The notes beneath the pieces are model-generated. The model made no database searches, was not told the DNA's origin, and worked only from the letters and a program-made list of their open reading frames with translations. The position numbers and the translations under genes are program-made. From positions 1 to 31,381 of the forward strand of contig JAEOTM010000124.1 in the NCBI GenBank assembly GCA_016839815.1: 31,381 nt of DNA, written 5' to 3'. Shown piece by piece: positions 6,345 to 27,311 of this stretch. Source of the DNA: Candidatus Hodarchaeota archaeon (GTDB taxonomy: Archaea > Asgardarchaeota > Heimdallarchaeia > Hodarchaeales > Hodarchaeaceae). Every line of letters begins with the position of its first letter. The first letter of the stretch is position 1.

Positions 6345-8213
6345 ATGAAATTAACTGTTCTCCCTTTTCGAAAAGTAATTCTTCTTTTTATTGCATTCAG
6401 TATCCCGGTCTTACCAACAGTCTCTATGGTTTTCAGTCAGTCTAGAGGAGTAGATGAAATTACTATCTATACCGACTGGGATTCAATGATAAAATCACGT
6501 AAAACTGCAATTAATAAGTTACCTGCATACACTGAATTTCCTGAATATGCTACAAACTGGACCGACTATACACAAAATAGTATTGATGATCTTTTGACTT
6601 ATGACGACTGTTGGATTAATCTTTCAGGAGGAAATATTGGATTTCGACCGTATGTAAAAGGAGCCGATGGATGGGGAGGAGAAGATTGGACCAGAGAAAG
6701 CTCTGAGCTAATAGCTACCGTTGATGTAATCTGGCCTTTATATCGTTACTTACAACTACATCCTAATTCTACACAGGAGTCACTTGTTAACGAATTCATT
6801 GATAGCTTCCCTTTGTATTATTCCGAATTTTACCAACAAGCTACGAATGGCCCAGGAGAGACTTCTCATGATTCTTGGTACTACTTAGAGAATTCAGTTT
6901 TGAAATGGGGGCAAATCTTTATGATGAGTCAATCTTCGATATTAAATGAATCATATTATGGCTCTCTCAACAGTGCAATAGATATGGCACATAATTTTGA
7001 CTATCTCTTCCCACAATTCGTCAGTGTTGAGACAAAACTACAAACTCGAAATGATAATATAAATTATGGAACTTCTGGATTATTAGCATTCAGTTTAATT
7101 GATGCTTATGAACTTACAGGAGATCTTAGTTATTTAACTGAAGCGAGTATTGCCCTTGAGGCGATGAGAGCTGTTAAACAACCATACAAGCTGATGTATG
7201 AACCACAAGAAATAGCTGCAGGAGTAGCTGCGGCATCAAGACTGCTTCAGTATCTAGATATAATTGAATCAACTACCGATTTTGCTCAACTGGCTATTGA
7301 TTTATTCTATGCAGAAGAACAAGTCTTGTATTATGATAACAGCAAGATCGATTGGTCATTTGGACTCAATCACGATCCAAGTCTTTGGTTGCCATTAAAC
7401 TGGCGAGATGGGATGCATTCACCATATGCGAATCCAAAGGAAGTTGGAACAGGAGGGATTAATGCCCCAGCTTATAAAGAAAATATTGAGGCAATTTTAT
7501 TTTGGACTTCTTTTCTTAAAGATATCTATTTTAGACCTGGCTTCAAAGCAATTGAACCCCTGAAAATTCTCAACTTGAATCGAATAAAGAATTTTTACTT
7601 CTTCAGCCCTAATATTCCTGATCAATACGAACGGTTTTATGGTCCAACCACACTTCAGTATGTGCCTTATGAAGATATAGATTATCATGCTACAAGAGGA
7701 TTTTACGACCCTGATCCGTTAAAAGCGGGATATAATGGAAAAGAGATCTATGGAGCTGGAGAAACTATTTGGAATTATTTAATGTTTGAAGCATTAGGAC
7801 AAGCAAATGATAGTAATTCTCTGATTCTTAACCTGAACATTTTTGATCAATCATACAGTCCTGCTCCTGAAAATCGAGCTTACATCGTTTTCAATCCTTA
7901 TGAGGAACAGAGAAATCTGGAATTTACCTTAAAACATTTAACAATCCAATACAATGTCTATGTTAATGGATCATTACTGGGTCAGTATCAACCAGGAGAC
8001 TCTTTTAGCACAAATCTTCCTCCTCTAGGTTCAGCTTATATTACTCTAGCAGATATCTCCACAGAGTGGACAATACCTATAGCAAATGTTACAACACTCC
8101 CTCACGGCACAGATTCCCTTGAAGAATTTACACCCATCATTCTGTTTCTTGGAATCTCGAGTATAGCTTTGATAGCTGTACTAATGTATGCAATTTTTAC
8201 AAAGAAAGAATAA
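6345..8213 (+). CDS. Secreted, membrane-anchored alpha/alpha-toroid glycoside-hydrolase-like protein (paralog of 22117..24540)
   Basis: Signal peptide; HDSWYY, AYELTGDLSYLTEA (six-hairpin glycosidase-like repeat), PYEDI, GKEIYGAGE..YLMFEAL; C-terminal TM followed by KKE. Confidence 0.7.
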   Translation: MKLTVLPFRKVILLFIAFSIPVLPTVSMVFSQSRGVDEITIYTDWDSMIKSRKTAINKLPAYTEFPEYATNWTDYTQNSIDDLLTYDDCWINLSGGNIGFRPYVKGADGWGGEDWTRESSELIATVDVIWPLYRYLQLHPNSTQESLVNEFIDSFPLYYSEFYQQATNGPGETSHDSWYYLENSVLKWGQIFMMSQSSILNESYYGSLNSAIDMAHNFDYLFPQFVSVETKLQTRNDNINYGTSGLLAFSLIDAYELTGDLSYLTEASIALEAMRAVKQPYKLMYEPQEIAAGVAAASRLLQYLDIIESTTDFAQLAIDLFYAEEQVLYYDNSKIDWSFGLNHDPSLWLPLNWRDGMHSPYANPKEVGTGGINAPAYKENIEAILFWTSFLKDIYFRPGFKAIEPLKILNLNRIKNFYFFSPNIPDQYERFYGPTTLQYVPYEDIDYHATRGFYDPDPLKAGYNGKEIYGAGETIWNYLMFEALGQANDSNSLILNLNIFDQSYSPAPENRAYIVFNPYEEQRNLEFTLKHLTIQYNVYVNGSLLGQYQPGDSFSTNLPPLGSAYITLADISTEWTIPIANVTTLPHGTDSLEEFTPIILFLGISSIALIAVLMYAIFTKKE

Positions 8214-10033: not shown

Positions 10034-12298
10034 TCAAACCTCATCATATTTCAAGCGATGTAATGCTCCAGATTTCAATGCAAGAATTACTGCGGCAATA
10101 AGAACACCACCTCCAAGGAATAAGGGAATTAAACCTTGGCCAGGGGAATACTCCACTGCTACAGTGTAGCTAAAGATTTCCGAGGTATTGGAATTTGGTG
10201 GATCAGCATCATCAAATGCTGTGATTTTATACTCTACCTTTGTTCCCTGCTTTTGAGGTGGGATTGAGGCCTTCCATAATCCATATGCACTCTTCATTGA
10301 GACATTGTACCATGTCCCATTACTGTAATACAGAATTACTGCCGAGACATCACCTTCATCATCCTCAACGGAGGCACTTATATTCACTCTCTGGGTATCT
10401 CGAACAATATCTATGGGATTTCTCGTCACAGCTCCTATAATGGGAGGAAAAACGTCTGCTCCACCACCAACTCTTACTGATGGAGGACTATCTCCCGTAA
10501 GTGTGGATGTTTCAAAGTATGCTTGCACAAAGAATGAATTGAACAGGTTGAGAGATGAAACATCGATATCAGCGGCTCCCCATGTCTGAGATGTTGGATC
10601 CCAAACCAGAGTTCCTGCTATCCCTGTTTCGGTCTTTTCTTTAAAGTTCATGAGTTTGTAAGTGGCACTGGTTGCAGTAGTATCTGTAATAAATTCAGCT
10701 GTATCAGTTGCAAAAGCTGTAATGTTCTCTATTTGCATTATATAATTATCAAAGTCAAGATCAACATGCGGGGCCGATACAAATAGATAATCAAAAGGAA
10801 TATCAGTTACAGAGATGATAGAGCTGTTGAAACTGAATGTAGGATCTGGTCGTAAGTATTCATCATATTTATCATGCATGAATTCAATTTTATCTTGGCC
10901 TTGCAGAATATCGACATCAAAAGGATGATACCTTGTTTTCAATGGCAGTTGAGCACCAGAATAGAAATTTTTGACACCTTCGGTTGAAGCACTCCAGGTA
11001 ATGTTACCGAAACCCGTTTCGTCAAAAATAAATCCATAACCGAGCTTATCATCATCTGGTTGTTCCCATTGGGGAGGTGTGATTGTTGTTCCCTCTAATA
11101 AGGCTTCGATATACCAAGGGGAGCTAAAATCACCTGAATCAATATGATGAATATTTGTATCATCTGGAGCGCGCATAACCCACCCTTGCCCATACCCTTC
11201 ATCTTGAGTATATCCAGGAACGTAAATTCCTTTATAGAAAGTACCGGGTCTACCACCACCCCATTCCCGGTTTTGATACTCAAGAGGAAGAACGGAGAAA
11301 CTTCCCGCTTCAGGTCCAGTAATATCCATCGAATAATCAAGAAAAGGTTGATTGACGTATAAGTCATAAGTAAATAAACCAAAAATTTCTTCGGTTTTAG
11401 TTGGTCCACCAAAGACTCCCTTTACATAGGGTTGAGTACTTTGTATAGTAACTCGGGCACGTATAGGTCCAGGAATTAAATCGATTAATTTTCCTGGATA
11501 TGGTCGTGTGGCGTATTGATTTTGGGAGGTAAATTCTTCAATTCGGGCAAATCGTGACCATTTCCAAATTTCTGACGGATAAGGGAATTTTTGCTTAATA
11601 ATGTCGAATCGAGATTCACCGAATTCATCTAGAAGGGAAATTTCGTAAATAGCCCCAGAAGACCATGCTGCAGAAATTAATACCGCACCCTGAATGATTT
11701 CGTTCTCAATGTAATACGCACCATTGTTTGGATCAATCATGTCAGGATATAAGTCATCAATTTCATCAAGCTTTGGATAAGGCGTGATACTACAAACTTC
11801 TGGAAAATATGGGGGTGGAAGGTCTAAATCAAGTGGACTAAAGTAGACTGTAAAAGAGGCTGTTTGCCCTATTGCTAAATCCACTTCATCTGGAAGGGTG
11901 AAAAGCAACTCATCATTTTCTGAAAATCCCGTAATACCATCTACATCATCTACTTGAGAGGGAATCAACTCTCCATTATATGTAACGTAGGCTGCATCCC
12001 ATTTGATATCATCTGAGCTTTCAGATGTATTCATACCAAATGGATCGATTGATACTGGGAGATTAGGGGCTATATCATTCAATTTGATTATAATAGCTGT
12101 GGATGCAGGTAAAGCATGGGTACCAGGTGCGGTGACATTAATATCTACTTTGATCATCTCATCAGTTTGAACGGTTTTTGGAAAAATTCTTTCTTCTGCC
12201 ATCGAAACACTTTTTGGTCTGCTTTGACCAATATTGACTTGAGTTAGTAGAGAAGTTAACAATACAATAAAGATTATAGACTTTAACGACTTTTTCAT
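10034..12298 (-). CDS. Secreted, membrane-anchored DUF4861-like protein with C-terminal Ig-like domain
   Basis: MKK signal peptide; IPSQVDDVDG..NDELLF and GPIRARV motifs; Ig-like module (PPII..VNISASVED..VILYYS..WKASIP..VEYKITAFD); C-terminal TM; GGTGA RBS. Confidence 0.7.
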   Translation of the reverse strand: MKKSLKSIIFIVLLTSLLTQVNIGQSRPKSVSMAEERIFPKTVQTDEMIKVDINVTAPGTHALPASTAIIIKLNDIAPNLPVSIDPFGMNTSESSDDIKWDAAYVTYNGELIPSQVDDVDGITGFSENDELLFTLPDEVDLAIGQTASFTVYFSPLDLDLPPPYFPEVCSITPYPKLDEIDDLYPDMIDPNNGAYYIENEIIQGAVLISAAWSSGAIYEISLLDEFGESRFDIIKQKFPYPSEIWKWSRFARIEEFTSQNQYATRPYPGKLIDLIPGPIRARVTIQSTQPYVKGVFGGPTKTEEIFGLFTYDLYVNQPFLDYSMDITGPEAGSFSVLPLEYQNREWGGGRPGTFYKGIYVPGYTQDEGYGQGWVMRAPDDTNIHHIDSGDFSSPWYIEALLEGTTITPPQWEQPDDDKLGYGFIFDETGFGNITWSASTEGVKNFYSGAQLPLKTRYHPFDVDILQGQDKIEFMHDKYDEYLRPDPTFSFNSSIISVTDIPFDYLFVSAPHVDLDFDNYIMQIENITAFATDTAEFITDTTATSATYKLMNFKEKTETGIAGTLVWDPTSQTWGAADIDVSSLNLFNSFFVQAYFETSTLTGDSPPSVRVGGGADVFPPIIGAVTRNPIDIVRDTQRVNISASVEDDEGDVSAVILYYSNGTWYNVSMKSAYGLWKASIPPQKQGTKVEYKITAFDDADPPNSNTSEIFSYTVAVEYSPGQGLIPLFLGGGVLIAAVILALKSGALHRLKYDEV

Positions 12299-13157: not shown

Positions 13158-15059
13158 CTATAGTGGCAGTTGAATTGTATTTTTAATCAGAGACAAAAAT
13201 GTGGCTAAAGCGATAACTATCCCGACTCCTGCACCTGTACCAGCAAGTATTACTGCGCGATTCGTATTCCAATTTTCCATCCGACTTTTTAAAAGCTGGG
13301 CAAACAGCGCACCTAAGAAGGTGGTAAATGCATATGGAATAACTGTAATAGTTCCTACAGAAAACGAAATCACAGAGATAGGAATTGGTGTACCCCATTC
13401 AATAATGTATAGAAAGAGAGTAGCGATGAAAGCAATTCCAAGGATAATTGGATCAATAATTGCAGTTGGATTTGTGACGAAAGTAGCAATTTTACCTACT
13501 TCAAGAGGCCAAAAAGGAACTGGAAAGATTACAGAGGGAACTTGAGCTATCGAAAGAAGGGCGGATACCCAAAAGATTCCTGCAATCCAAGCGACAAACG
13601 AGGCCAAGAAATGGGCTTTAATTAAACTCCCTCGTTTTGTATATGTAAGGTCAGCCGTTTTAAATGTAGCAACCCATCCTGCTCCCCCTTGTGATATTAC
13701 TAAAGGTATGAACCAAATTTTACCACCTATAGGCGCATTTGCTGCAACAAAAGCCGACTCTTTTACGTAAGGTATAAGTGGAAGATTAGCTGTTATTCCG
13801 AAAGCATATGCCATGGTTAAGGAAGACAGAAAACTCCAACCAATCGTTAAGATAATAAGAACAATAATCATTTGTTGAGAAAGATCAGGAATAAGTAACC
13901 AAGCGACAACCACTGAACCTAATGTCCCTAATATGAAAAAACCAAAAAGAACACTTAATTTTGGTGTACCACCTTCAATCTCTTCCCCCTTTCCTTTGGA
14001 AAGTTTCCGTAAATCTCTTATAGTAGTTATAAAGATCTTAGGATTACGTAAGATGGGGATTAAGGCTGAGCTTAAGAGCAAACCAATTGTCCATGGTAGC
14101 CAAAAGTTCAGCTGAGAGTTATTGAATGTATCTACAAGAGACATTCCTTTTTCCCAACCGATATCTACGCTATTAGAAACAAGTAATGGATTTATAATTA
14201 AATTAACAAATATAGATCCTACAAGAATACTTACTACTACATTTAAAGGAAGAATAAAACCTGTGACAAAGAAAATAATATCTGTTGCAATCCCAAATGT
14301 TGCCCCGTTGAGAAATCCTTCAACTGAGGGTGTGAAATCAAACCAAGGAATCGGAATTAGAGTTATATCAAATACTAGAGGGAAAAAATACAGAATAAAA
14401 CCAGCAAAACTAGCGATAATCGCGCTAACAGAGAAAACCTGTAATTTATTTTTATCCTCCCATGTTAATGATTTTGCTCGTTCAGCCTCGACTTCAGCAG
14501 TCGGAAATGGTAACACTTCAACTTTTGTGTATAAGTAATTGAAGACTATTCCAAGAGAAATATCCGTAGATTTCGCTAGAAGAGCGTTAATAATGAGTAG
14601 TCCTAAGGGTAGGATAAAGACAGGATTTAAAATCGTCTGCACAGGACCAAAGTATGCTGGTGCAAACCAGTCGGGAATCAAAGCTGTGAGTGGAACACCA
14701 TTAATGAGCTGAGAGCTAATTATTGGATGATGTCGTAGATAATAATTGAAAACAAGCAGTACTATCATTTCCATACCAAGGGCCGTACTTGTCACATTAA
14801 TCAACATGAATACTTCTTGTTTAGTTAGAGGATTATCAGCTAATTTTGCAAATACAGCGAATAGGACTATTGTTGTGTTCAAAACTGCCCCAATAAACCA
14901 TTGGTTTGTTACAAAATATAGATAAATGGCAGCAGGCTGTATTATAACTGCGGAATACACTATTGCGAGACCAACTCGCCATGTGAATCCGCTTTGATAT
15001 TCCTCTTTATGCTCTTCCATCTCGATTGGTTCATCTTTGCTTACATTAATTTCACTCAT
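13158..15059 (-). CDS. OPT/YSL-superfamily-like multi-pass membrane protein
   Basis: Roughly 15-17 hydrophobic segments; SGFTWR, LTKQE, EVLPFP motifs typical of OPT-like 'peptide transporter' proteins; last gene of a 3-gene operon. Confidence 0.75.
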   Translation of the reverse strand: MSEINVSKDEPIEMEEHKEEYQSGFTWRVGLAIVYSAVIIQPAAIYLYFVTNQWFIGAVLNTTIVLFAVFAKLADNPLTKQEVFMLINVTSTALGMEMIVLLVFNYYLRHHPIISSQLINGVPLTALIPDWFAPAYFGPVQTILNPVFILPLGLLIINALLAKSTDISLGIVFNYLYTKVEVLPFPTAEVEAERAKSLTWEDKNKLQVFSVSAIIASFAGFILYFFPLVFDITLIPIPWFDFTPSVEGFLNGATFGIATDIIFFVTGFILPLNVVVSILVGSIFVNLIINPLLVSNSVDIGWEKGMSLVDTFNNSQLNFWLPWTIGLLLSSALIPILRNPKIFITTIRDLRKLSKGKGEEIEGGTPKLSVLFGFFILGTLGSVVVAWLLIPDLSQQMIIVLIILTIGWSFLSSLTMAYAFGITANLPLIPYVKESAFVAANAPIGGKIWFIPLVISQGGAGWVATFKTADLTYTKRGSLIKAHFLASFVAWIAGIFWVSALLSIAQVPSVIFPVPFWPLEVGKIATFVTNPTAIIDPIILGIAFIATLFLYIIEWGTPIPISVISFSVGTITVIPYAFTTFLGALFAQLLKSRMENWNTNRAVILAGTGAGVGIVIALATFLSLIKNTIQLPL

Positions 15060-15077: not shown

Positions 15078-18000
15078 TCACTTTTTTAAATTTTTTCTGA
15101 ATTTCTCTGAATTCAACGCTTTTTCTTCTTTAGGAAGACTTCTCCAAATAAGCAGCTGCTTTCTAATACTATCTACAAATCGTCTAACCGAAGATTCCCA
15201 AGCAAGTAATATTCCTTCAAGACGGACTAAGTTAATCTCAAACACATAATGAAATTTAATTTCCTCTAGGTAGGAGTAGACATCTACTTCTTGTTTCAAT
15301 CCCGCATCGAATGGTGCTAAATTCACAGTAGCTGTAAGATGTTTTTCTTTTCGTTCTCGATCTGTTTCACTAGTAGCAATGTTTTGCGCGAAAAAAGCTC
15401 CTCCTACACTCTCTGATTCATAAATTTCAAAAAATTCTCGCAAAAACTCAATAATTCCTTCTGCTTCCTGTTCGGTTGCAGCTACGAATGGAAGTGGAAT
15501 ATTCCAGGTTTTTCCATCATCTTCATAGGTAGTCTTTAACTCCCATTTTCGTCGTACCGAGGGAACAGACATTTTGGCCGAGATTCTCAAGGGATAGATT
15601 GTACTAAGAAGGATTCCTCCAATTCCCAACCCTAGTGCTTGAACAATGGAACCTGAGGAATAATTGATGGCTAATGATTCTGGAAAGATCCCTAGTGCTG
15701 AGAGGACTACAGCTGATGTAATACCCATTAAATATCCTATTACAGATCCAATAACGGCATACACAAGAAATTCGGCTAAAAATAAGCCTGCTATATGGAC
15801 GGGTGCTAATCCTAGTGATGTAAATGTATTAATTTCTTTTTTTGACTCGTAAACGGTGCTAACTGAAGTATTGATCATTATTAAAACGGCTATTACTAAT
15901 GGGATTCCAAGCTCTCCCAATCCTTCTCCAAGACTTTGCAATTGACGTTTGAAAATGGTTACTTCATCATTATATCCTACTCTAACCTGTAAATTCCTAC
16001 CGTAGGTTGAGGATATTGTCCTTGCAATGTCTTCATAGAGAGTAAATTCTTGAGAAGTCTGATTTTCTGCTTTAATCGAAATTGAGGAAAGGGTTCCTCC
16101 AAATGATTTAACTGTATGAGCAGGTAGAATGAAAGTATCATCAGGATAGATATGGACATTTGGAGCTGGTGCGTGGTTGTTCTTTGGGGTTAATTTTTCA
16201 TTATCATAATCTCTTAAGCGTTCAAACTCTATCGAGTCCAAAATTCCCACGACTAAAAATTCTTGGCCTGCCCAAATAACTGTTTCATTGACTGCTACAT
16301 TTAATTTTTCACTAAGTTCATTAAACAAGATGCATTCTGAACCATTTGAGCTTGTAAACCATCTGCCAGATAGTAATATTGACTCAAGTGGATGAAAGTT
16401 TGTTTCTAAAGGTGTCATGCCTAGGATGGCTGAACCTTCCCACATGTTATTCCCATCAGGAGTTTCTACCTTAACATAACCATTCGGATACTCAGATTTG
16501 TCGGAGGGTGGATAGAGCCACCAGCGAGAGGCGATCTGAATTTCATCTTCATAAGATACTTCTAAATTTGTAATTAATTCTTCTGGTAATGGAAATTCCC
16601 AATCCTTCGTTCTAATATAAATACCATCGTAGGAGATTTCCTGAGCCTCTCCTTTTGAGAATGTAGCAACCTGAGTTGTTGCAGAAGTAAAAAGTGTTAA
16701 TGAGAATGTAATGAGAACAATCCCTGATAGTGCAATAACCGTTCTTCCTTTCCTTTTTTTCATTCTCGAAATTCCAGTACTCATGGCTATTAGCAAAGTA
16801 GAGGTTCGAGAAGTGTCAGCGAAATGCGAACCTAGCTGCTTAAGACGCAGACTCTTGAGGTAATCATAACCCTCTTGGTATATCATTAATAAGGCTGGAA
16901 ATACAAAGATTGTTGCTACAACTCCAACAATAATCATCGCGATATTTTGTGACAGATGCATCCCTGGATGGATAATATAAAAGAATCCAAATCCAGCCGC
17001 ATAAATCGTACTAGTAGCCAAAATTCGCTTTATTCCACTATCAAAATTAAATAATAACGCAGAAAGAGCAAAAGCAAATGGAATGAGAAGAACGGCGAAA
17101 AATATCGATGTAGCGGTTCCATCCTGTATTACTTTTCGTGCCTGCCTAAAAGAATCGTACGCCCAAGTATGGGATTCTATTATGGTAGCAATTGATTGCG
17201 AATATTGATACTTGCTCTTTAGTAGGTTTGCAGTGATTAATAAATCAGAGGCAGTTTCAAATGTAGTCTCCACCAAAGCATCATAGATATTATATCGTGT
17301 GTACAATGCGACATAGGTTTGGGTGATGGAGAGTAGATCTCTTGTAGTTATGAATGAGGAATAACCAAGATTTTGAAATTCTCCGTGCCCAAGAGTATAT
17401 CCCTTTCCTCGCAAGGTTTGGTTATCTGAATTTGTCGCATAAACTCCGAGTAAACCATCGTTGTATTTACCCACTATAATAGAGGGGATATCTGGTTGAA
17501 GGAATACTAAGCTTACAGTCTTAGATCCTGTATATCCATAAGAAAAGTATACATTTCTGGTCACAGGATCTAAAACGCTATAGTCTATATTATGTGCAGC
17601 ACTAACTTGTGTAAAAGGGTGATAAAGCCCAAAAATACTGATAGTGCCACAATCGAATACGGTAGGATTGACTGTGGTTCTCCTTTTTGTCAAAGTATTA
17701 GAGTTTTTGAAGTATTGACCCCGAGTTCCAAGATCAATAGCTTTAATCATTCTTCCATCTGTATCAAACTGATATGCTTCAACAACAAACTCAAGTGGAT
17801 AATCTGGTTGTTCTGAAGACACACCACGGATTTGGTAATAACCAGTTTCATCCGATTTAGTTATGTATGAATATTCGCCAAAGGTACTATCGCGATTATT
17901 GTAGGATCTAATCCTGACTAGAGCGTTTGGTACATTTACAAGCCACGCATTTGTCTCATCATACTGTTTTACGTATCCTTCTATGTAACCATAGCCAACA

Positions 18001-19583
18001 TGTGCATTAGTGGCAACTTTTAACGAAAATTGTTTATTTTCAAGATTGGTTAATACTGAATTTAAACCATCGTCTAGAATCAATTGAGTGTAAGCACATA
18101 AGCTATATATTACTTGGTTTTTCAGAAATGTGAAGTCTCTTAAAGAAATATGTGAATATAAATCAACGGGGGTATTGAATTTTAAACGATGTGATCCTGA
18201 TGTAAATAAAGATAATCCTAATACGTTTGATGCAATAAAAGGTTCATGATCACCTACAAAAGTTATGGGGGAAATATCCTTAAACTCCTTATTAGTAACA
18301 TATGATTCTACAGCAAAAGAATAACCTGATTCGCTCTCAATCAAATCTGTATAGCTCAAGAGATAATCTTGAGCAATATCCTTTAGTTTTGTAATGAGAC
18401 GATTTCCACTTGTGTATTGAAGTTGGAATTTGTACAAATATCCATATGGATTGATCGCGATTTTATCATTTGTAGAAGAAAGATCAAATGAAAGAAATAA
18501 TTTATACCCTTTGTTTTTATTTAAGGAACTATAATATTGGTCCACGAAATTTCTTGCCCCAGCTGCTTGTTGATTATGTCCTGAAAGAGCTAGAAACATG
18601 ATTGATTTTTCAGGTACAATATCATTTTCATTAATAAGACGAATGAATTCTAGAAGGGTCGCTATACTGCAAGATTCGTCTGCGCCGGGAGCAATAGCTG
18701 GGATAATTGATGTTGAATCGAAATATGCAGAAATAATTATGAAATCTTCACTTTTGCCCGGTAATATACCCATGACATTCTTTGCATCAATCGAAGTCCA
18801 TTCCATATCCGAATAGAGGGTAATTTGTTGATCTCCTGGAATTGATAGCCCCTTTATCATAGTAGCTGTGGTTTGATTTTCAATAAAAAGTCTGGGAAAG
18901 TGAAGAGGAATATCTAACGTTTTTTCTTCTGCTTCAAAACGATTAGTATCATTCGTAGGAAGAAAAATTACCCCACTAGCTCCTAGACTAGCTACTTTAA
19001 GCCAATTATCTAGTGAATTGAATTCAAGTACAACGATTGCATCTTCAATCTTTTTTCCATCCAACTCAGAATAAGTTCCTGTTCCTCCGTAAACTAGGGT
19101 ACCAGTTACTCCAATGGACGGAATTCTACTCGGATTTAGAGAATTTGGCATTAAAGTATGTGCAGTAAAATTCTCTCCTTCTACTTCGACACTTGTGCTT
19201 TTATCAATAGGAACTAGAAGAGGATACGTGGGAAAAGATACATTCTCTAAACCTTGATCAACAAAAAAGTCTCGAATATAATTTGCAGCAAGCTCATATC
19301 CTGGATAACCTGTAAACCGACTTCCACCAAAAGTGGAAAAATTGCTAATGTGACTTTGAATATTAGAAAAATATGTATTATTAATCTGGTTGCTTAATTC
19401 TTGATATCCTGGGAATTCTGCTGATTTAGAATTTGATTGTAAAACCTCAGTTTCTGTTAAATTATTTATTCTTTCTTCTCCATCTTCCTGAACAGATCTT
19501 TCTTCAAAAAAAAACTGATTACTTACCACAAGGGAGAATAGGAAAAAAAAGAAGAATAAGGTTCTGGAGTATTTCAAGATCAT
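15078..19583 (-). CDS. Fusion protein: PA + M28 peptidase-like ectodomain, carboxypeptidase-regulatory-like beta domain, TM bundle, MacB-type extracytoplasmic domain and FtsX permease
   Basis: SRFTGYPG..AANYI, PA-like GTLVYGGTG..GASGVIF, AYFDS..APGADE..LLEFIR, DHEPF; C-terminal FtsX signature VYESKKEINTFTSLGL..LFLAEFLVYAVIGSVIGYLMG and YPLRISAK. Confidence 0.85.
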   Translation of the reverse strand: MILKYSRTLFFFFFLFSLVVSNQFFFEERSVQEDGEERINNLTETEVLQSNSKSAEFPGYQELSNQINNTYFSNIQSHISNFSTFGGSRFTGYPGYELAANYIRDFFVDQGLENVSFPTYPLLVPIDKSTSVEVEGENFTAHTLMPNSLNPSRIPSIGVTGTLVYGGTGTYSELDGKKIEDAIVVLEFNSLDNWLKVASLGASGVIFLPTNDTNRFEAEEKTLDIPLHFPRLFIENQTTATMIKGLSIPGDQQITLYSDMEWTSIDAKNVMGILPGKSEDFIIISAYFDSTSIIPAIAPGADESCSIATLLEFIRLINENDIVPEKSIMFLALSGHNQQAAGARNFVDQYYSSLNKNKGYKLFLSFDLSSTNDKIAINPYGYLYKFQLQYTSGNRLITKLKDIAQDYLLSYTDLIESESGYSFAVESYVTNKEFKDISPITFVGDHEPFIASNVLGLSLFTSGSHRLKFNTPVDLYSHISLRDFTFLKNQVIYSLCAYTQLILDDGLNSVLTNLENKQFSLKVATNAHVGYGYIEGYVKQYDETNAWLVNVPNALVRIRSYNNRDSTFGEYSYITKSDETGYYQIRGVSSEQPDYPLEFVVEAYQFDTDGRMIKAIDLGTRGQYFKNSNTLTKRRTTVNPTVFDCGTISIFGLYHPFTQVSAAHNIDYSVLDPVTRNVYFSYGYTGSKTVSLVFLQPDIPSIIVGKYNDGLLGVYATNSDNQTLRGKGYTLGHGEFQNLGYSSFITTRDLLSITQTYVALYTRYNIYDALVETTFETASDLLITANLLKSKYQYSQSIATIIESHTWAYDSFRQARKVIQDGTATSIFFAVLLIPFAFALSALLFNFDSGIKRILATSTIYAAGFGFFYIIHPGMHLSQNIAMIIVGVVATIFVFPALLMIYQEGYDYLKSLRLKQLGSHFADTSRTSTLLIAMSTGISRMKKRKGRTVIALSGIVLITFSLTLFTSATTQVATFSKGEAQEISYDGIYIRTKDWEFPLPEELITNLEVSYEDEIQIASRWWLYPPSDKSEYPNGYVKVETPDGNNMWEGSAILGMTPLETNFHPLESILLSGRWFTSSNGSECILFNELSEKLNVAVNETVIWAGQEFLVVGILDSIEFERLRDYDNEKLTPKNNHAPAPNVHIYPDDTFILPAHTVKSFGGTLSSISIKAENQTSQEFTLYEDIARTISSTYGRNLQVRVGYNDEVTIFKRQLQSLGEGLGELGIPLVIAVLIMINTSVSTVYESKKEINTFTSLGLAPVHIAGLFLAEFLVYAVIGSVIGYLMGITSAVVLSALGIFPESLAINYSSGSIVQALGLGIGGILLSTIYPLRISAKMSVPSVRRKWELKTTYEDDGKTWNIPLPFVAATEQEAEGIIEFLREFFEIYESESVGGAFFAQNIATSETDRERKEKHLTATVNLAPFDAGLKQEVDVYSYLEEIKFHYVFEINLVRLEGILLAWESSVRRFVDSIRKQLLIWRSLPKEEKALNSEKFRKNLKK

Positions 19584-19637: not shown

Positions 19638-21833
19638 TCATCTTCCTATTAGTCCTCTTAAGAAGAAATATACAACACCTATAATCGAAAGTAACCAGAT
19701 TAACAGGACTATACCGTAATAATAAATATTTTCTACTGTAGAATTAATTATTATCATTGGAAAGATTGCTGGAATCATGATTGATACCAATGAGAATCCC
19801 CATATACCAGCTGTACCCAAAAGATATCCTACTGCCCCTGGTAGTAGAATCGTGGTGTATGCACGTGTACCACCAATTCTTACTACAGCATATTTGAGTA
19901 CATATGCGATTAAGATGGGTAACCACCAATAACCTCCTCGAAGACTGAGTAAGATTGGTGCAGCAATGGGATTTAGGGGCAACCAAGGACTACCCAATCG
20001 GATGATATTCAACCCTATTGCAAAGACCATACCCAAAATTGCCTGTCCCCAAATATCAACCCTGTAGCTCGTGAAATCCCAAAAACCTCCAGTCACTAAT
20101 GTATAAGCAGCCTCTGTATAATCAAAGTTGTGACCAGCTTCTCCTGACCATTCATTACTTAGACCATAGAAGTATGCAAAGAATGGCCATACAGTTAAGC
20201 ATAAAATAATTATAGCAACTACTGCAATAGCGTGACTCTTGAAGATATCGCGGGTAGGAGTCTTCGTGATTCGAGCAATATTGTAAGACTCCAATGCCGA
20301 AATCGCGGGGGCAGCAGGAGCAGCATCTCTCTGGAAGAACTGTATCCATAAAGCCGTTACATAGAATCCTGCCTGATCAACTGGTTTATTGTCCCCATCA
20401 ACTCCAATGAGTGCACGAACTGAATGAATACCATGAAGGTGAACATAACCAGGATGTCCAATTCCCATACCCGCAGTTTCTGCTCTAAGTCTTGCACCTG
20501 CTACATAAGCTATAAGTAGGAAGATTACAGCATAAACAGCGCCAATTAAAGGAGCGCCACTTAAGAGTAGGGACATCATAAATATGAGAGCACAAACGAA
20601 TAATCCAATCCAAGCGGCACGATAAGGAATTGGTTCATTCGATTCATCTATTACACTTGGATCCCAGATTGCTTTAATTGTTCTCCACAAATATCGACGC
20701 TGTAGAATGATGGCCCAGAAAGCACACCCAAATAAGATTCCCCATTCTCCAAATGTGAAAAGTGACATTCCACCTCCTTTTGCAAATCCTAAATCAATAT
20801 CTGGAGGTGACGCCCAGGGAGGACCTGTAGGTGGTGCAATTAAACCCATCTCTGTTTGGAAAATTGGAATTAAAATCCAGAATAGTAAATAAAAGATGAG
20901 TGACGAAAGTAGAACATTTAATGAGACCAAAAGGAACACTGCTATCATTACAGGTTCAGGGCGTGATTCAAGGAATGCATTAGGTAAGAATTGACTTAAA
21001 CCGAATTCTTGTCCGAAATCGATTCTTACTGCCCATGCCTTTCCAGGTTGGATACCCAAGAGATCGACATCAGCAAAGATATCTCCCCATTCAGGATAAA
21101 CTACTCTCAAAAACTCGAAAGACGACCAAATAATCCCAAGTAAAGCACCAAAAGATAACCAAGTATAGCGCCTTCTTCTGTCATGAGGTTTTGCAAAGGG
21201 GGCTTCTAGCAATTCCTGAACAGGTTGTGCAAGTGGAAACGCTAATCTTTCCACATCTATCCATGGTTTTCGAAATATTTGGATAAGGAATAAACACATG
21301 AAAGCCCAAGCAATCGATGTAATTGCCCAAAAAATAATTGGCAGTAACCATTCCCCAATATTTGGTAATACTCCTCCATCAAATGAGGCATAATATTCGG
21401 TAGATGATGGACCCCAGAATGAAGGAGCGAAATTTGAGGGAGGTGGTGATTCACCACGGAGAGGGTACATTGCATTTAGCAATAATCTTCCTGCTAGAAA
21501 TCCAGAATTCGTAATAGGGATGCCTACCACTAATAAACCCCAAATAAACGTTAATTCTTGACGAGTTAATTTTGTTCCTCTTAATCTTACTCTCTCAAGA
21601 GCTTGAAGACCAAAGATTAACAGGAAGAAGGGGAAAAGGATACTCATTTCTTCTATGAATATTTGTGGAGCTTCTCCAAAGTTACCAGCAAATATACTCA
21701 TCAATCCCCACAATAATAAGATCACCATTCCAATGGATAATGATCTTTTTGTTAATCCAGTTTGAGGCTGATCTAGTTCATCTATCTCAGTTGATTTTTC
21801 TGCTTTTTCGGCGTCTAAACTCATTTGAATCAC
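19638..21833 (-). CDS. Multi-pass membrane protein, DUF6785/DUF6784-like (distant OPT relative)
   Basis: Roughly 17 TM; GLTKR, LTRQEL, WLLPIIFW, RKPWIDVERLAFPLAQ, RLRAETAG, WLPLNPI, KYAVVRIGG..Y..P.AVG. Start may be ATG at 21824. Confidence 0.75.
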   Translation of the reverse strand: MIQMSLDAEKAEKSTEIDELDQPQTGLTKRSLSIGMVILLLWGLMSIFAGNFGEAPQIFIEEMSILFPFFLLIFGLQALERVRLRGTKLTRQELTFIWGLLVVGIPITNSGFLAGRLLLNAMYPLRGESPPPSNFAPSFWGPSSTEYYASFDGGVLPNIGEWLLPIIFWAITSIAWAFMCLFLIQIFRKPWIDVERLAFPLAQPVQELLEAPFAKPHDRRRRYTWLSFGALLGIIWSSFEFLRVVYPEWGDIFADVDLLGIQPGKAWAVRIDFGQEFGLSQFLPNAFLESRPEPVMIAVFLLVSLNVLLSSLIFYLLFWILIPIFQTEMGLIAPPTGPPWASPPDIDLGFAKGGGMSLFTFGEWGILFGCAFWAIILQRRYLWRTIKAIWDPSVIDESNEPIPYRAAWIGLFVCALIFMMSLLLSGAPLIGAVYAVIFLLIAYVAGARLRAETAGMGIGHPGYVHLHGIHSVRALIGVDGDNKPVDQAGFYVTALWIQFFQRDAAPAAPAISALESYNIARITKTPTRDIFKSHAIAVVAIIILCLTVWPFFAYFYGLSNEWSGEAGHNFDYTEAAYTLVTGGFWDFTSYRVDIWGQAILGMVFAIGLNIIRLGSPWLPLNPIAAPILLSLRGGYWWLPILIAYVLKYAVVRIGGTRAYTTILLPGAVGYLLGTAGIWGFSLVSIMIPAIFPMIIINSTVENIYYYGIVLLIWLLSIIGVVYFFLRGLIGR

Positions 21834-22116: not shown

Positions 22117-24540
22117 TTGATTCCCATGAAACATCTCCAAGCTAGGTTTTTAATTTCAGAAAAACATTCACTTTTGTTAAAGAGAGAAAATAACGCATAC
22201 AAGACAATTTTTGAATCAAATAGAAAAGGCGAATGGAAGGAAAGCGCCTTAATCCCGTTAATTACTTTGGAAGAAAACCAACCAGTATGGGCGACGGAAC
22301 TTCACCTGAATGATAGTGAAAATGGTCAGATAAATCTCCTTTTGGAGACGAGAAAGGAAAAGAATTACATAATTTCTACAGAAATTAAAACAAGTCCGAA
22401 TTTTCATCCATGGCTTCATTTTAGAACTACTATTAATTTTGAAAAGGACTACACATTCAACGAAATGGGACCAGAAGTAAAACTGGATCTTGGGTTGAAA
22501 GATTATCGTTTAGAAAACATGGTATCAATTCGACAGCCAACACGCCACACACCCTCCACTGATGAATGGAAGTCAAATGATATGCCAGCTACGGCGATTT
22601 GGAACTTTAAAACCAGATTACAATCATTTTTCTTCATGAATTTTTCAGAAATGGAATGGATGTCCCCTCAAACTATCGAACGTTTCTCAATCTATGAGTG
22701 CGGAATTCAGTCCGACGGGTTAATCGGTTTAGTCCATAGAATTCCACTTAAATCACCAGTTACGTTTTCCAAAGGGACAGTGCTCAACTTTGATTTCTTT
22801 TTTCTTCAAGAATTCCGAGAAGAACACCCTACACAATGGGATTTAGTAGAAGATCTTACTAAGCACTGTTTTAAGCTCGTTCCAAGTTATGTCCCTTTTG
22901 CAAGGGAAGGTTTAAACTGGACAGATTTTTCTGAAGGATGCATAGATGATCTAATGAAGGAAAATCTTTGCTGGGTAGATCCCAAATCTCCTAAATATTT
23001 CGCATACGTAATGGATGACTCTGAACTCAAACGAAGGGAAGCTATTGGTAGATCAAATATCTTCGAAACAATGACGTTACTCTCACTACTTCCACCATGG
23101 ATCTTGTATTCACAAATACATCAAAAAACGGAAATAATAAATCATCTAAAACTAATGTACAAAACTCTAGAGCATTTTATTGACCAAGAATCAGATTATT
23201 TTTACAATAATATAAAATTTAACCCTAATGAAAGTCATGAAATAATAAAAGCGACGGAGTATTCTATTGGTGATTCCTGGTATTTTTTTGAACCAATATT
23301 AAGACTAGGATGGGTGATACGTCTCGCTCCTTTATTAGATTTAGGCCAAAATTATTATAGGACCTTCAAGAATATGGTGAAGATGTCCACTGAATTTGTT
23401 ACTAAGCACAATTATGAAATCACAGCATTTTATGACCCTTTTACTCAAAAACCTCTTCATGAAGTTCTCGATAAGGATGGAGAAAGAGAAGAGCTCTTGA
23501 AGTTGTCAAGGGGTAAAGAGGACATAATTTGGAAGAAGAAGGCAAAAAATTTCGCTTGTCTTGGGATTCACCTATATATTGTTGTAGAAGCATATTATTT
23601 ATTCCAAGAAAAGCACTACCTTGAAGAAGCGATCAAAAGTGCAAAGAAATTAGCCAGTTTTTCTCCAGACATGTTATTTTGGGAACCATTCGAGATTGCT
23701 TATGCAGTTTCTGGATTTACTGATCTAACAAAAATTACAAATGATAATACTTACCTAGAAGTGGCAAAAAGATTTCTATTAAATGAATTAAGAATGTTCT
23801 ATTGGTATGAGGATAATTCCTTTAATTGGAAGGGTAAAAGATCAAATTTAGGATTACCAATGGCCTGTATTGGTATTCGATATCCAGCAGTAAAAGAAAA
23901 TGTTGAGTCAGTCCTTCCTTGGTTAATGTATCTAAAAACTGCAATGAATATTAAGGGAATTATGATACCCGAGGGAATATTGAAATTCTTAAATCTCGTT
24001 AGGATAAATACTTTTTACTTCTTCTCAGATGTATTGCCAAAGGAATTTATATATCCTCCAAGAAGAAACACTCCTTGTCCGTATATTCCATTTGAAGATC
24101 TTGAAATGCTTGAAACAGCTCCACATTTTTCTGTATCACAAGAATATGTTGAAAAAGGGTCACGTACTGGAATTTTGGGAAGAGAAATCTACGGAGCAGG
24201 AGAAATAATATACCTTTATTTGATGTTTGAGGCGTTAGCTAAATGTAATGTGTCTGATATAATGATTTTAAATCTAGATCTGTTTGATTTCTCTTTACTA
24301 AAAGAATTCCCTCCTAAAATCCTTAATTTTGTACTATATAATCCTTTAGAAGAATCCACAAAATGTCAGGTCGTTTTTTACACATGCGAAACAGAAATGT
24401 ACAAGATGAAACTATATTCACTTCAATCTGCAAAAGTTGCTCAAAATCTCACTCTCTCAAAGAAAGAATTAGATAATGGGATAGAGTTTGTCTTGGATAA
24501 AGAAGAGGTCTTAAATGTCACACTTACTCCGATAGAGTAA
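22117..24540 (+). CDS. Cytoplasmic alpha/alpha-toroid glycoside-hydrolase-like protein with N-terminal beta domain (paralog of 6345..8213)
   Basis: No signal peptide or TM; GDSWYF, EAYYLFQEKHYLEEA, PFEDLE, GREIYGAGE..YLMFEAL. Start TTG 22117 or ATG 22126. Confidence 0.7.
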   Translation: MIPMKHLQARFLISEKHSLLLKRENNAYKTIFESNRKGEWKESALIPLITLEENQPVWATELHLNDSENGQINLLLETRKEKNYIISTEIKTSPNFHPWLHFRTTINFEKDYTFNEMGPEVKLDLGLKDYRLENMVSIRQPTRHTPSTDEWKSNDMPATAIWNFKTRLQSFFFMNFSEMEWMSPQTIERFSIYECGIQSDGLIGLVHRIPLKSPVTFSKGTVLNFDFFFLQEFREEHPTQWDLVEDLTKHCFKLVPSYVPFAREGLNWTDFSEGCIDDLMKENLCWVDPKSPKYFAYVMDDSELKRREAIGRSNIFETMTLLSLLPPWILYSQIHQKTEIINHLKLMYKTLEHFIDQESDYFYNNIKFNPNESHEIIKATEYSIGDSWYFFEPILRLGWVIRLAPLLDLGQNYYRTFKNMVKMSTEFVTKHNYEITAFYDPFTQKPLHEVLDKDGEREELLKLSRGKEDIIWKKKAKNFACLGIHLYIVVEAYYLFQEKHYLEEAIKSAKKLASFSPDMLFWEPFEIAYAVSGFTDLTKITNDNTYLEVAKRFLLNELRMFYWYEDNSFNWKGKRSNLGLPMACIGIRYPAVKENVESVLPWLMYLKTAMNIKGIMIPEGILKFLNLVRINTFYFFSDVLPKEFIYPPRRNTPCPYIPFEDLEMLETAPHFSVSQEYVEKGSRTGILGREIYGAGEIIYLYLMFEALAKCNVSDIMILNLDLFDFSLLKEFPPKILNFVLYNPLEESTKCQVVFYTCETEMYKMKLYSLQSAKVAQNLTLSKKELDNGIEFVLDKEEVLNVTLTPIE

Positions 24541-24845: not shown

Positions 24846-25583
24846 TTAATATGAAGGAATACTCACATCTTGCGAGGATATTGATACATCAATTCTTTTT
24901 TGCGTTCTTGTAATTTTACCATCACGTAACCAAGAAATCCTATCAGCAATATCAATTAATTTTAGATCATGAGTCGAATTAATCACAGTAACTCCAGTTT
25001 CATGTGAAATTTCTCGTAATAATTCAACAATGGCAAATCCTGTTTTTAAATCTAGATTTCCTGTGGGTTCGTCTGCTAGCACAAGACTTGGTTCTCCTGC
25101 CAGCGCGCGCGCGATAGCTACCCGCTGTTGCTGTCCTCCTGATAGTTCATCCGGTGTGTGGTTCATACGATCACCTAAACCAACACGCTCAAGCATTTCT
25201 TCAGCCCTCTTCCTTCGCTCTTTACGTGAGTATTTCTGAAAGACTAAGGGTAAAGCAACATTTTCCAATGCGGTAATGACTGGAACTAAATTGAATGTTT
25301 GGAAAATGAAACCAATTTTATATGCTCTTAAGGAAGCTAATTCTTTTTGAGTCATTTTGGAAAGGGGAACACCCTCAAAGTATACTTCTCCTTCTGAGGG
25401 AACGTCTAACGCACCAACCATATTGAGAAATGTTGTTTTCCCGCTACCTGATGGACCCATGATAACATGGAATTCACCACGGGGAATAGATAGAGAAATT
25501 CCATTTAATGCCTTGACTTCTTGAGTTCCCATTTGGTACGTCTTTACAACATTTTCCATCTGTATTGTAATGTTCTCTGTCAT
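24846..25583 (-). CDS. ABC transporter ATP-binding protein, MacB/LolD type
   Basis: Walker A GPSGSGKT, GFIFQTFNL, LSGGQQQRV, Walker B VLADEPT, H-loop STHD. ATG at 25583 follows a GGAGTGA RBS (track start GTG 25592). Confidence 0.95.
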   Translation of the reverse strand: MTENITIQMENVVKTYQMGTQEVKALNGISLSIPRGEFHVIMGPSGSGKTTFLNMVGALDVPSEGEVYFEGVPLSKMTQKELASLRAYKIGFIFQTFNLVPVITALENVALPLVFQKYSRKERRKRAEEMLERVGLGDRMNHTPDELSGGQQQRVAIARALAGEPSLVLADEPTGNLDLKTGFAIVELLREISHETGVTVINSTHDLKLIDIADRISWLRDGKITRTQKRIDVSISSQDVSIPSY

Positions 25584-25596
25584 GTTCTTCACTCCT

Positions 25597-26319
25597 TCAG
25601 GTCATCGCATCCACTTGTATATCCGCTCTATCTTCAATTCTATCTACTCTTCCATCACGAATCCAGATAATTCTGTCACTAATACTAATCATTTTCAGAT
25701 CATGAGTAGCAGAGACGATAGTTGTTCCTTGTTCTTCGTTGAGATTTCTGAGCAGTCCAATGATTTCTAATCCCGTGGCAAGGTCAAGGTTTGCTGTAGG
25801 TTCATCTGCTAGTATGATTGCGGGATCATTAGCTAAAGCTCTAGCTATGGCAACTCTTTGTTGTTGTCCTCCCGATAATTGTCCTGGTTTATTCTTAGCT
25901 CGATCTTCAAGCCCTACTAATTTTAATATCTCCTTTGATCTCTTCTTTCGATCCTCTCGTGGGACTCCAGCAAATACCATTGGGATTTCAACATTCTCTT
26001 GAGCAGAAAAGGCAAGTAGTAAGTTAAAGGTCTGAAAAATATACCCTATCTTCCTATTCCGTAACCATGCTAATTCGTATGCATCTAGTTCTGATATATC
26101 GACCTGATCGATATATATTTCTCCACTAGTAACTGTATCTAATCCCCCTATAGCATTGAATATTGTACTTTTACCTGATCCTGAAGGGCCCATAATGGAG
26201 ACATATTCTTCTCGTTTAATTTTGAAGGAAATCCCTTGAAGTGCATGAATGATAACCTTTCCTAATTGATATTGTTTATAAACATCATCTATTTCAACAA
26301 CATATTCTTCTAAACTCAT
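25597..26319 (-). CDS. ABC transporter ATP-binding protein, MacB/LolD type
   Basis: Walker A GPSGSGKS, GYIFQTFNL, LSGGQQQRV, ILADEPT, ATHD. Confidence 0.95.
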   Translation of the reverse strand: MSLEEYVVEIDDVYKQYQLGKVIIHALQGISFKIKREEYVSIMGPSGSGKSTIFNAIGGLDTVTSGEIYIDQVDISELDAYELAWLRNRKIGYIFQTFNLLLAFSAQENVEIPMVFAGVPREDRKKRSKEILKLVGLEDRAKNKPGQLSGGQQQRVAIARALANDPAIILADEPTANLDLATGLEIIGLLRNLNEEQGTTIVSATHDLKMISISDRIIWIRDGRVDRIEDRADIQVDAMT

Positions 26320-26334
26320 ATTTCAACCACCATA

Positions 26335-26937
26335 TTAGTTTTCATACCTTAAAGCTTCAGCTGGTGATAGTTTAGAAGCTCTCCGAGCAGGAATATACGT
26401 TGCTAGAGAAGTTAATACGATAGCTATTATTAGACAAGCTAGGAGTAACAAGATTATAGAAGTAATATTTGCTTCTAAGAGGACAATTAACTCATCTAGT
26501 GATGCTCTATTCAGATTTATTCCAATTCCCATTCCAATACCAATGATTCCTCCAAAAAATCCACCTAAAACTCCCAGAAGTAATGCTTCCACAATGAATA
26601 AGCGGACGATATGAGTATCTAATCCTCCAATGCATTTGTAAACTCCAATTTCCTTTACTCTTTCGTTAACGGCCATTAACATGGAATTAGTTATTCCCCC
26701 AAACGCAACTATTAATGAAATCCCAACTAACCAATACTGATATGCTTCTACACCCTTTTCTGTCTGTAACCAATCTAAGATAAGTGAATTTGTTAAGAGT
26801 GCAGCCATGAAGGCGATACCAAGTATAATGCCTAATGCTGTGATAACAGATCGGAAAAATCGTCTTCTAATATTTGAATATGAGAGATATAATACTTCGG
26901 AGAGTGAAAACTCTGGTTCGGGGAGATCTAGGCTCAT
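26335..26937 (-). CDS. Minimal FtsX-like ABC permease lacking an extracytoplasmic domain
   Basis: NIRRRFFRSVITALGIILGIA, GITNSMLMAVNERVKEIGVYKCIG, IPARRASKLSPAEALRYE; only about 15 aa between TM1 and TM2. Confidence 0.9.
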   Translation of the reverse strand: MSLDLPEPEFSLSEVLYLSYSNIRRRFFRSVITALGIILGIAFMAALLTNSLILDWLQTEKGVEAYQYWLVGISLIVAFGGITNSMLMAVNERVKEIGVYKCIGGLDTHIVRLFIVEALLLGVLGGFFGGIIGIGMGIGINLNRASLDELIVLLEANITSIILLLLACLIIAIVLTSLATYIPARRASKLSPAEALRYEN

Positions 26938-27311
26938 GCTATTACCTCCTCAGAACTTGATCTTTCCTCGTCCATCTCTATTCCTTTCATAACCTTCTCC
27001 CATTGAACGAGTTTCTCTGTTATATCAATAAGGTGCTTTCTAAGGATCTCGACTGTCTTTTCTTCGTTCATTCTAGTTGCATTCCACGTCACATATGGCG
27101 CATAGAATTTACCTTTTTCCAAAATAATTTTCCTATTCGTATCAATACGAAATTTCAAATACCCTAATTCTCTTAAGTAGCAATAATCATTTTTACAAAT
27201 GATATCGATTTCTCCACCTTCATCAGAATCTTTTTTCAAATAGAGAAGGGAGTAATCCGAATAGCCATTAATTGATTTGCCACATGGGCATTGAATAGTG
27301 TTTTCGGACAT
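26934..27311 (-). CDS. Small Cys4 (putative Zn-binding) protein, translationally coupled to the FtsX gene
   Basis: CPCG ... CKNDYC; ATGA stop/start overlap at 26934-26937. Confidence 0.75.
   Translation of the reverse strand: MSENTIQCPCGKSINGYSDYSLLYLKKDSDEGGEIDIICKNDYCYLRELGYLKFRIDTNRKIILEKGKFYAPYVTWNATRMNEEKTVEILRKHLIDITEKLVQWEKVMKGIEMDEERSSSEEVIA

Follow-up and report, generated by a model that had tools for sequence, protein, structure and literature searches.

A permease-fused M28 domain that has lost the canonical two-zinc site in an Asgard archaeon

We analysed a stretch of 31,381 nucleotides from a Candidatus Hodarchaeota archaeon (contig JAEOTM010000124.1 of assembly GCA_016839815.1), here called the window, and in it a gene on the minus strand for a 1,501-aa protein with an M28 peptidase domain. 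We found that this domain forms the head of a protein that also carries a MacB/FtsX permease, and that the canonical co-catalytic two-zinc M28 site, judged from aligned sequences, is gone from the head throughout its family. A preliminary description had singled out the span 18150-19330, which lies wholly within the open reading frame and corresponds to residues ~85-478. It had described the M28 head but overlooked the fusion, which is apparent from Pfam: the protein matches Peptidase_M28 at residues 269-482, MacB_PCD at 948-1178 and FtsX at 1229-1339. The M28-FtsX protein is a variant that combines known kinds, an M28 pseudo-enzyme and a type VII ABC permease. Active-site residues were mapped from a phmmer alignment with the Aeromonas/Vibrio proteolyticus aminopeptidase (AAP) and from a second one with intact M28 paralogues that this archaeon encodes. 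The gene and its five motifs are as follows.

15078-19583, minus strand: M28-FtsX gene (P0001), a single open reading frame of 1,501 aa with pseudo-M28 head and MacB/FtsX permease
18714-18728, minus strand: motif 1, AYFDS, residues 286-290; Y287 stands at the position of Zn2 ligand H97, and D289, equivalent to second-shell D99 of AAP, is kept
18672-18686, minus strand: motif 2, GADES, residues 300-304; bridging ligand D117 is kept as D302, and the non-ligand D118 is E303
18570-18584, minus strand: motif 3, SGHNQ, residues 334-338; the general base E151 is replaced by H336 and Zn1 ligand E152 by N337
18477-18491, minus strand: motif 4, SFDLS; Zn2 ligand D179 is kept as D367
18162-18179, minus strand: motif 5, FNTPVD, residues 469-474; Zn1 ligand H256 is replaced by N470

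Compared with AAP, three of the five metal ligands and the general-base glutamate are replaced, and the head does not hold the residue set of an active M28 enzyme. Three of the substitutions named in the preliminary description stand in the AAP alignment: AHxD changed to AYFDS (H97 to Y287), the catalytic xEE to LSGHNQ (E151 to H336 and E152 to N337) and YHTxxD to FNTPVD (H256 to N470). A fourth, GADD changed to GADE, is right in its letters but is not the loss of a ligand, since the bridging aspartate is kept and the changed residue binds no metal. The loss of the metal site had likewise been called correctly for three ligands, but the retention of D179 as D367 had been overlooked.

An exhaustive search for the family gave 524 clusters at 50% identity (E<1e-30), nearly always with a length of 1,450-1,550 aa, and active-site residues were counted in 189 relatives with a length of 1,000 aa or more. 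When the metal-ligand columns were aligned across these homologs, a check that the preliminary description had itself proposed, the canonical site was lost in 189/189. The Glu-Glu pair was absent from all 189 relatives examined. Glutamate occurred in 0/189 at the E151 position, where histidine was found in 166/189 (88%), and in 0/189 at the E152 position, which was occupied by W (72), N (50), H (27) or Y (20). At the position of H256 we found mainly N (56), G (54) and F (15), and the bridging D117 was aspartate in 99/189 (52%). The H97 position held H in 88, Y in 77 and N in 14 relatives, so that H or Y was present in 165/189, and D367 was kept in 156/189. D289 was aspartate in 189/189 and residue 303 was acidic (E/D) in 177/189 (94%); the mean column identity of the family alignment was ~42%. 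Since D289, E/D303 and H336 are conserved despite the loss of the Glu pair, the pocket has been remodelled and has not decayed. The former active site is still under selection, which speaks for a functional pocket and is compatible with chemistry of a non-canonical kind.

The same genome encodes both intact and altered M28 domains. Stand-alone M28 proteins on contigs C101, C76, C34 and C81 keep the residues H/D/EE/D/H, and all three FtsX-fused paralogues (contigs C36, C85 and C104) are without the Glu pair. Searches for stand-alone close relatives of the head gave just contig-end fragments of the family and four weak generic M28 matches. Separately, a stand-alone 420-aa M28 homologue (contig C155:3074-4333, plus strand) keeps motifs 1 and 2 and has D-A-S-K-W in place of the Glu-Glu pair; it is a candidate for a second, independent M28 pseudo-enzyme.

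The window encodes the primase subunits PriL and PriS and is archaeal. The closest homologues of the 1,501-aa protein (80-82% identity) are named Hodarchaeales, Hodarchaeota or Heimdallarchaeota, which agrees with the probable Asgard origin assigned earlier. Family members were found in Heimdall-, Hod- and Hermodarchaeota, in Bathyarchaeia, Brockarchaeota and Thermoproteota, and in at least six bacterial lineages, among them Gemmatimonadaceae, Latescibacterota, Armatimonadota, Planctomycetota and Poribacteria, and the family is as frequent in non-Asgard archaea and bacteria as in Asgard. The Poribacteria members (L053, L057 and other loci) are ~2,443 aa long, with a long insert separating the M28 head from the FtsX module. 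Public names for the genes are 'M28 family peptidase' or 'antimicrobial peptide ABC permease', and our literature search found no paper that describes the M28-FtsX family.

We built an AlphaFold model of residues 60-560 on 22 homologues (mean predicted local distance difference test score, pLDDT, 89.3) and a second model of residues 545-1501 (pLDDT 84.7). Together with hydropathy scans and Pfam these divide the protein into the following parts.

19503-19562, minus strand: N-terminal hydrophobic signal-anchor, residues 8-27, preceded by basic residues (hydropathy scan)
18042-19406, minus strand: PA-inserted M28-fold head, predicted extracytoplasmic, residues 60-514 (AlphaFold model and fold matches)
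18789-19226, minus strand: PA/apical-like insertion, approximately residues 120-265, with approximate boundaries (weak Pfam PA match and fold alignments)
17361-17951, minus strand: beta-rich stalk domains, residues 545-741 (structure model)
16833-17360, minus strand: helical hairpin and three membrane helices, residues 742-917, the helices at ~794-917 (model and hydropathy)
15564-16751, minus strand: MacB/FtsX module, residues 945-1340 (Pfam MacB_PCD and FtsX; Foldseek)
15084-15509, minus strand: conserved cytoplasmic C-terminal alpha/beta domain, residues 1359-1500 (model)

The head scored 47-50 bits against Pfam Peptidase_M28 (PF04389; cut-off 21.3, E 2e-12), and phmmer matched it to AAP with E 6e-10 to 8e-9. 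Its top PDB match in a single-sequence search was 2anp, the E151H variant of AAP. The model of the head matched BSAP (6hc6; Z 30.6, 379 residues aligned), AAP (1amp/1rtq; Z 29.1-29.2, root-mean-square deviation 2.4 A, 21-22% identity, 265 residues), 2ek8 (Z 28.2, 384 residues), the transferrin receptor, TfR (Z 27.0-27.4, ~400 residues) and GCPII (Z 24-27, ~390-410 residues). Taken together, the Pfam score, the phmmer match and the fold match indicate that the M28 assignment is not due to chance, and the fold comparison with M28 enzymes that had been proposed as a check thus gave an M28 fold with a PA insertion (best Z 29-31, to AAP and BSAP). The PA-like insertion of the preliminary description is real by fold, because ~380-400 residues align to the PA-containing 2ek8, BSAP and TfR as against ~265 to the PA-less AAP; by sequence the PA match is weak (residues 159-229, 13.1 bits against a Pfam cut-off of 23.9). 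The PA-region residues P146, N147, K221, P226, P230 and R231 are conserved at at least 90% across the family.

In its C-terminal half the protein matched Pfam MacB_PCD with 29.6 bits (cut-off 27) and FtsX with 43.6 bits (cut-off 25.5), and Foldseek matched this half to MacB (5gko, 7e-11) and also to LolCDE, HrtBA, YbbAP and BceAB (7e-11 to 1e-5). The second model and hydropathy gave a basic cytoplasmic loop, a first transmembrane helix (TM1) at 945-965, a periplasmic core domain (PCD) at 971-1216 and TM2-4 at 1222-1326. This is the four-helix FtsX module of a type VII ABC permease, with an extracytoplasmic core domain between TM1 and TM2, and the fold is shared with MacB, LolCDE, FtsEX, HrtBA, YbbAP and BceAB. 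Relative to these systems the M28-FtsX protein adds a giant N-terminal head, three membrane helices, a C-terminal cytoplasmic domain and a pairing with oligopeptide-transporter-like (OPT) proteins described below, and in most lineages its gene is without an adjoining ATPase gene. The head and the PCD are predicted from hydropathy to be extracytoplasmic, and N-glycosylation sequons are confined to the predicted outside parts. An alignment of the C-terminal domain shows invariant W, P, G, R and W residues; the domain had no Pfam match and no PDB sequence or profile match. The beta stalk had no Pfam match either, and a PDB profile search with it gave six insignificant matches (best E 0.16). We also considered the N-terminal half as a degenerate second FtsX module; the sequence does not support this, as hhalign gave a probability of 5% for the extra three helices against the FtsX region.

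A role other than that of a peptidase fits the head best, because the two-zinc site is gone and the domain belongs to a membrane protein and faces the cell exterior. The earlier proposal of a receptor rather than a protease is upheld in so far as the canonical peptidase site is lost and the membrane placement is extracellular; a receptor role itself would be an extrapolation from these features.

The M28-FtsX gene lies between two genes for membrane proteins.

19638-21833, minus strand: DUF6785/DUF6784 polytopic membrane protein, 731 aa (Pfam), upstream, 54 nt before the M28-FtsX gene
13158-15059, minus strand: probable OPT-superfamily membrane protein, 633 aa, downstream, 18 nt after the M28-FtsX gene; paralogue of the DUF6785 protein

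We compared the gene context of 80 loci and found a homologue of the 633-aa protein directly downstream of the M28-FtsX gene in nearly all of them, archaeal and bacterial. Among the groups that share this pairing are Asgard, Bathyarchaeia, Gemmatimonadaceae, Planctomycetota and Poribacteria. A DUF6785-like gene stands upstream in the archaeal loci, and this order is conserved in Heimdall and Thermoproteota. Full-length homology joins the two flanking families (hhalign probability 99.7-100%, E 4e-27), and this paralogy is visible by profile-profile comparison alone, since BLASTP of the two flanking proteins against each other gave no significant match (E 0.09). Pfam OPT (PF03169; cut-off 25.8) is matched over profile positions ~104-621 by orthologues of the 633-aa protein, with 43.8 (L093) and 44.5 bits (L026). 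In the window itself, the 633-aa and 731-aa proteins fell below the Pfam OPT cut-off, and a PDB profile search with the OPT-like family gave no match.

About 5 kb from the M28-FtsX gene are genes for two ATPases and a small FtsX protein (mini-FtsX), which form a candidate motor module.

24846-27311, minus strand: candidate motor module of a 125-aa protein (p125), a 200-aa FtsX protein without ectodomain and two ABC ATPases (Pfam, NCBIfam)

The p125/mini-FtsX/ATPase module adjoins both the window locus and a paralogous locus on contig C104, and it is also found at a third locus, on C101. The second full copy (L096, C104:1-18000) contains an ATPase cut by the contig end, mini-FtsX and a p125 homologue, together with a 1,627-1,644-aa M28-FtsX paralogue, an 889-aa DUF6785 protein and a 686-aa OPT-like protein. 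The third locus (L095, C101:5000-24500) contains two ABC ATPases, mini-FtsX, a 128-aa protein and four TldD/PmbA-like peptidases, as well as a 730-aa OPT-like protein, an unfused 579-aa permease with MacB_PCD and FtsX, and two catalytically intact PA-M28 peptidases. This peptidase-rich, unfused locus lends the system a peptide-related flavour. Five further genomes with family members were compared. Three of them encode full-length orthologues of mini-FtsX elsewhere, in open frames of 207-236 aa; the fourth has a partial mini-FtsX match in a 246-aa frame and the fifth a 510-aa FtsX protein only. A complex prediction for the FtsX module (residues 930-1348) with the 200-aa mini-FtsX gave a score of 0.29 (mark 0.32), which speaks neither for nor against binding. 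A functional link of the motor module to the M28-FtsX protein may be supposed.

On balance we lean toward a type VII ABC permease that cooperates with OPT-fold carriers and whose head is a non-hydrolytic ligand binder. One operon would yield the M28-FtsX protein and two OPT-superfamily paralogues. The pseudo-aminopeptidase head, with its PA-plus-M28 fold and conserved polar pocket, would bind a ligand without cleaving it. This ligand would most plausibly be a peptide or an amino terminus; a peptide is favoured because of the aminopeptidase ancestry of the head and its OPT partners. Conformational work of the FtsX module may then hand the ligand to the OPT-like carriers or gate them, with drive from ABC ATPases and a small FtsX protein that are encoded nearby in Heimdall genomes and elsewhere in others. 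Family-wide loss of the site, the fold and topology of the protein, its fusion and the recurrent gene pairing are results of the comparisons above, and upon them we infer the binding of a ligand, its identity and the coupling to ATPases and OPT-like proteins. A more specific version is possible but doubtful: the head would act as substrate receptor in a hybrid machine for uptake, with a MacB/FtsX-type mechanical ABC motor serving OPT-fold carriers. OPT-fold carriers are otherwise thought to act alone on the proton gradient. If such a machine exists, it would be a 'binding-protein-dependent' OPT system that is widespread in uncultured archaea and bacteria.

Several observations weigh against this reading. 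First, AAP can stay catalytic with histidine in place of E151, to go by the title of PDB entry 2anp, 'Functional Glutamate 151 to Histidine mutant' (Bzymek et al. 2005, pmid 16142900). Second, the Zn2-type triad (H/Y287, D302 and D367) is complete in 82/189 relatives, as H-D-D in 47 and as Y-D-D in 35. Third, no ABC ATPase lies within ~7 kb in any non-Heimdall locus, and ATPases are nearby in Heimdall loci only. Finally, other neighbours in the window look glycan-related (GH2, two alpha/alpha-toroid-like paralogues and DUF4861-like proteins), which makes a sugar oligomer, instead of a peptide, a possible cargo.

The first two of these observations would fit a remodelled enzyme, which we regard as unlikely. 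Such an enzyme would either bind a single metal at H/Y287, D302 and D367, which correspond to the Zn2 site of AAP, and employ His336 as general base, or rely on a His/Asp centre without metal, and it would act on a surface or imported substrate. The conservation of H336, D289 and E/D303 is consistent with it, as is the rank of 2anp as best single-sequence PDB match. However, neither of the Zn1-specific ligands is left, and the two positions are free to vary, with W/N/H/Y at 337 and N/G/F/D/S/Y/K at 470. Moreover the bridging aspartate is kept in just over half of the members, position 287 switches between H, Y and N even between close Heimdall relatives, and no set of ligands is common to the whole family.

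It is somewhat harder to credit that the head is a structural spacer or scaffold, setting a distance in the cell envelope or docking another protein, and has no small-ligand pocket. Nicalin, nicastrin and GPAA1 are M28-fold scaffolds and provide precedents, and the head model matched GPAA1 of the GPI transamidase (7w72_A) at Z 19.5. The long beta and helical stalk in the model would suit a spacer. So would a short paralogue class of ~1,230-1,270 aa (L097, at C36:25057-28833 of the same genome, and P0044), in which the pseudo-M28 head and the FtsX helices are kept although the MacB PCD is missing; no OPT-like neighbour was detected at the short-class locus C36:25057-28833. Against a spacer, conservation peaks at the former active-site positions and at the charged PA residues K221 and R231, a pattern typical of a pocket.

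The preliminary description had also put the protein forward as a candidate relative of eukaryotic pseudo-peptidases. We consider it highly improbable that nicalin, nicastrin or TfR have in this head an Asgard relative or precursor. In favour of such a link, the host is an Asgard archaeon of Hodarchaeales type, TfR aligns with the head over ~400 residues at Z 27, and the family profile does reach TfR (E 9e-16), nicalin (E 2.5e-11, 46 bits) and nicastrin (E 5e-3, 18.6 bits). However, active bacterial PA-M28 enzymes are higher on every measure among the matches listed, the profile being topped by 2ek8 (E 2e-26, 95.7 bits, profile positions 12-301). The same profile matched AAP at E 1e-16 to 2e-18 (63-70 bits), BSAP at E 3e-14 and GCPII at E 4e-8. 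As a single sequence the head matched nicalin at E 0.78, and TfR and nicastrin were not listed at E<=1. A stretch ending in ATLLEFIR had been said to resemble the equivalent region of nicastrin, nicalin and TfR; this was not supported, as residues 262-350 matched AAP at E 4e-9 to 5e-8 compared with E 0.37 for nicalin. Pfam Nicastrin (PF05450) scored 15.3 bits on the head, below its cut-off of 25. The helical domain of TfR was not found, with no match to TFR_dimer at E<=10 in residues 27-560 or 540-830; the model shows beta-rich domains after the M28 core. Nicalin and nicastrin were not among the best 50 fold matches listed in two VIA-align runs (lowest listed Z 18.4 and 25.9).

As a control we used an intact PA-M28 protein of the same genome, which matched TfR at E 2e-8, nicalin at 0.017, nicastrin at 0.003-0.1 and Pfam Nicastrin with 21.5 bits. 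Since this intact protein outscores the head on TfR, nicalin and nicastrin and the bacterial enzymes top the family profile, the resemblance is a generic M28 and PA-M28 signal. In addition, the family is not specific to Asgard, and the FtsX fusion and the OPT partners are without counterpart in the eukaryotic proteins. By these comparisons the head appears to resemble TfR, nicalin and nicastrin only as an inactive M28-fold ectodomain on a membrane protein, and a specific kinship is not supported. A tempting claim of a 'eukaryotic signature protein' for Asgard archaea is thereby removed.

Among known systems, the bacterial PA-M28 aminopeptidases (BSAP/YwaD 6hc6, Aneurinibacillus AM-1 2ek8, P. 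aeruginosa PaAP 8acg and Shewanella 3iib) have the same PA-in-M28 layout and are the best fold and profile matches. They are secreted, soluble, active two-zinc enzymes, whereas the head has its ligands and base replaced and is fused to a permease. AAP is the best match to the catalytic core, and its E151H variant shares with the head a histidine at the general-base position; however, AAP is without the PA domain and keeps H97, E152 and H256, where the head has Y, N and N. TfR and GCPII (M28B) are likewise membrane-anchored PA-M28 ectodomains, and TfR is also non-catalytic and ligand-binding. They differ in having the TFR_dimer helical domain and another membrane part, and the similarity to them is no higher than to the active bacterial enzymes. 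The likeness to nicalin, nicastrin and GPAA1 is a functional analogy, that of inactive M28-fold ectodomains serving membrane complexes; nicalin and nicastrin have other partners and no PA-to-FtsX architecture, and their sequence matches are weak (nicalin single-sequence E 0.4-0.8). Nicastrin is part of a complex with presenilin, APH-1 and PEN-2, and nicalin partners NOMO and TMEM147 in the eukaryotic ER; the genes that neighbour the M28-FtsX gene are OPT-like and FtsX/ABC genes.

The family joins the M28 fold, type VII ABC and OPT in an unstudied manner, and adds a prokaryotic case of an M28 pseudo-enzyme whose pocket is rebuilt and conserved. The 'peptidase' label on its genes is probably wrong, and would make extracellular peptidases look too numerous in Asgard, Bathyarchaeia and sediment bacteria.

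Further genes of the window were also compared. A 651-aa protein without a Pfam family (4315-6270, plus strand) may travel with the system, since a very strong homologue (E ~1e-143) adjoins the cassette at L026 and L028, two archaeal loci outside Asgard. Proteins of 622 aa (6345-8213, plus strand) and 807 aa (22117-24540, plus strand) are paralogues of one another, with 27% identity over ~545 aa (E 1e-38); they have no Pfam match, and weak homologues of them flank the cassette at the same two loci. A 754-aa DUF4861-like surface protein (10034-12298, minus strand) has a 63%-identical paralogue on contig C45. Lastly, the placement of a PqqD/RRE-like gene (29492-29956, minus strand) with respect to the mini-FtsX/ATPase module is the same in the window and in the Heimdall chromosome CP070760.

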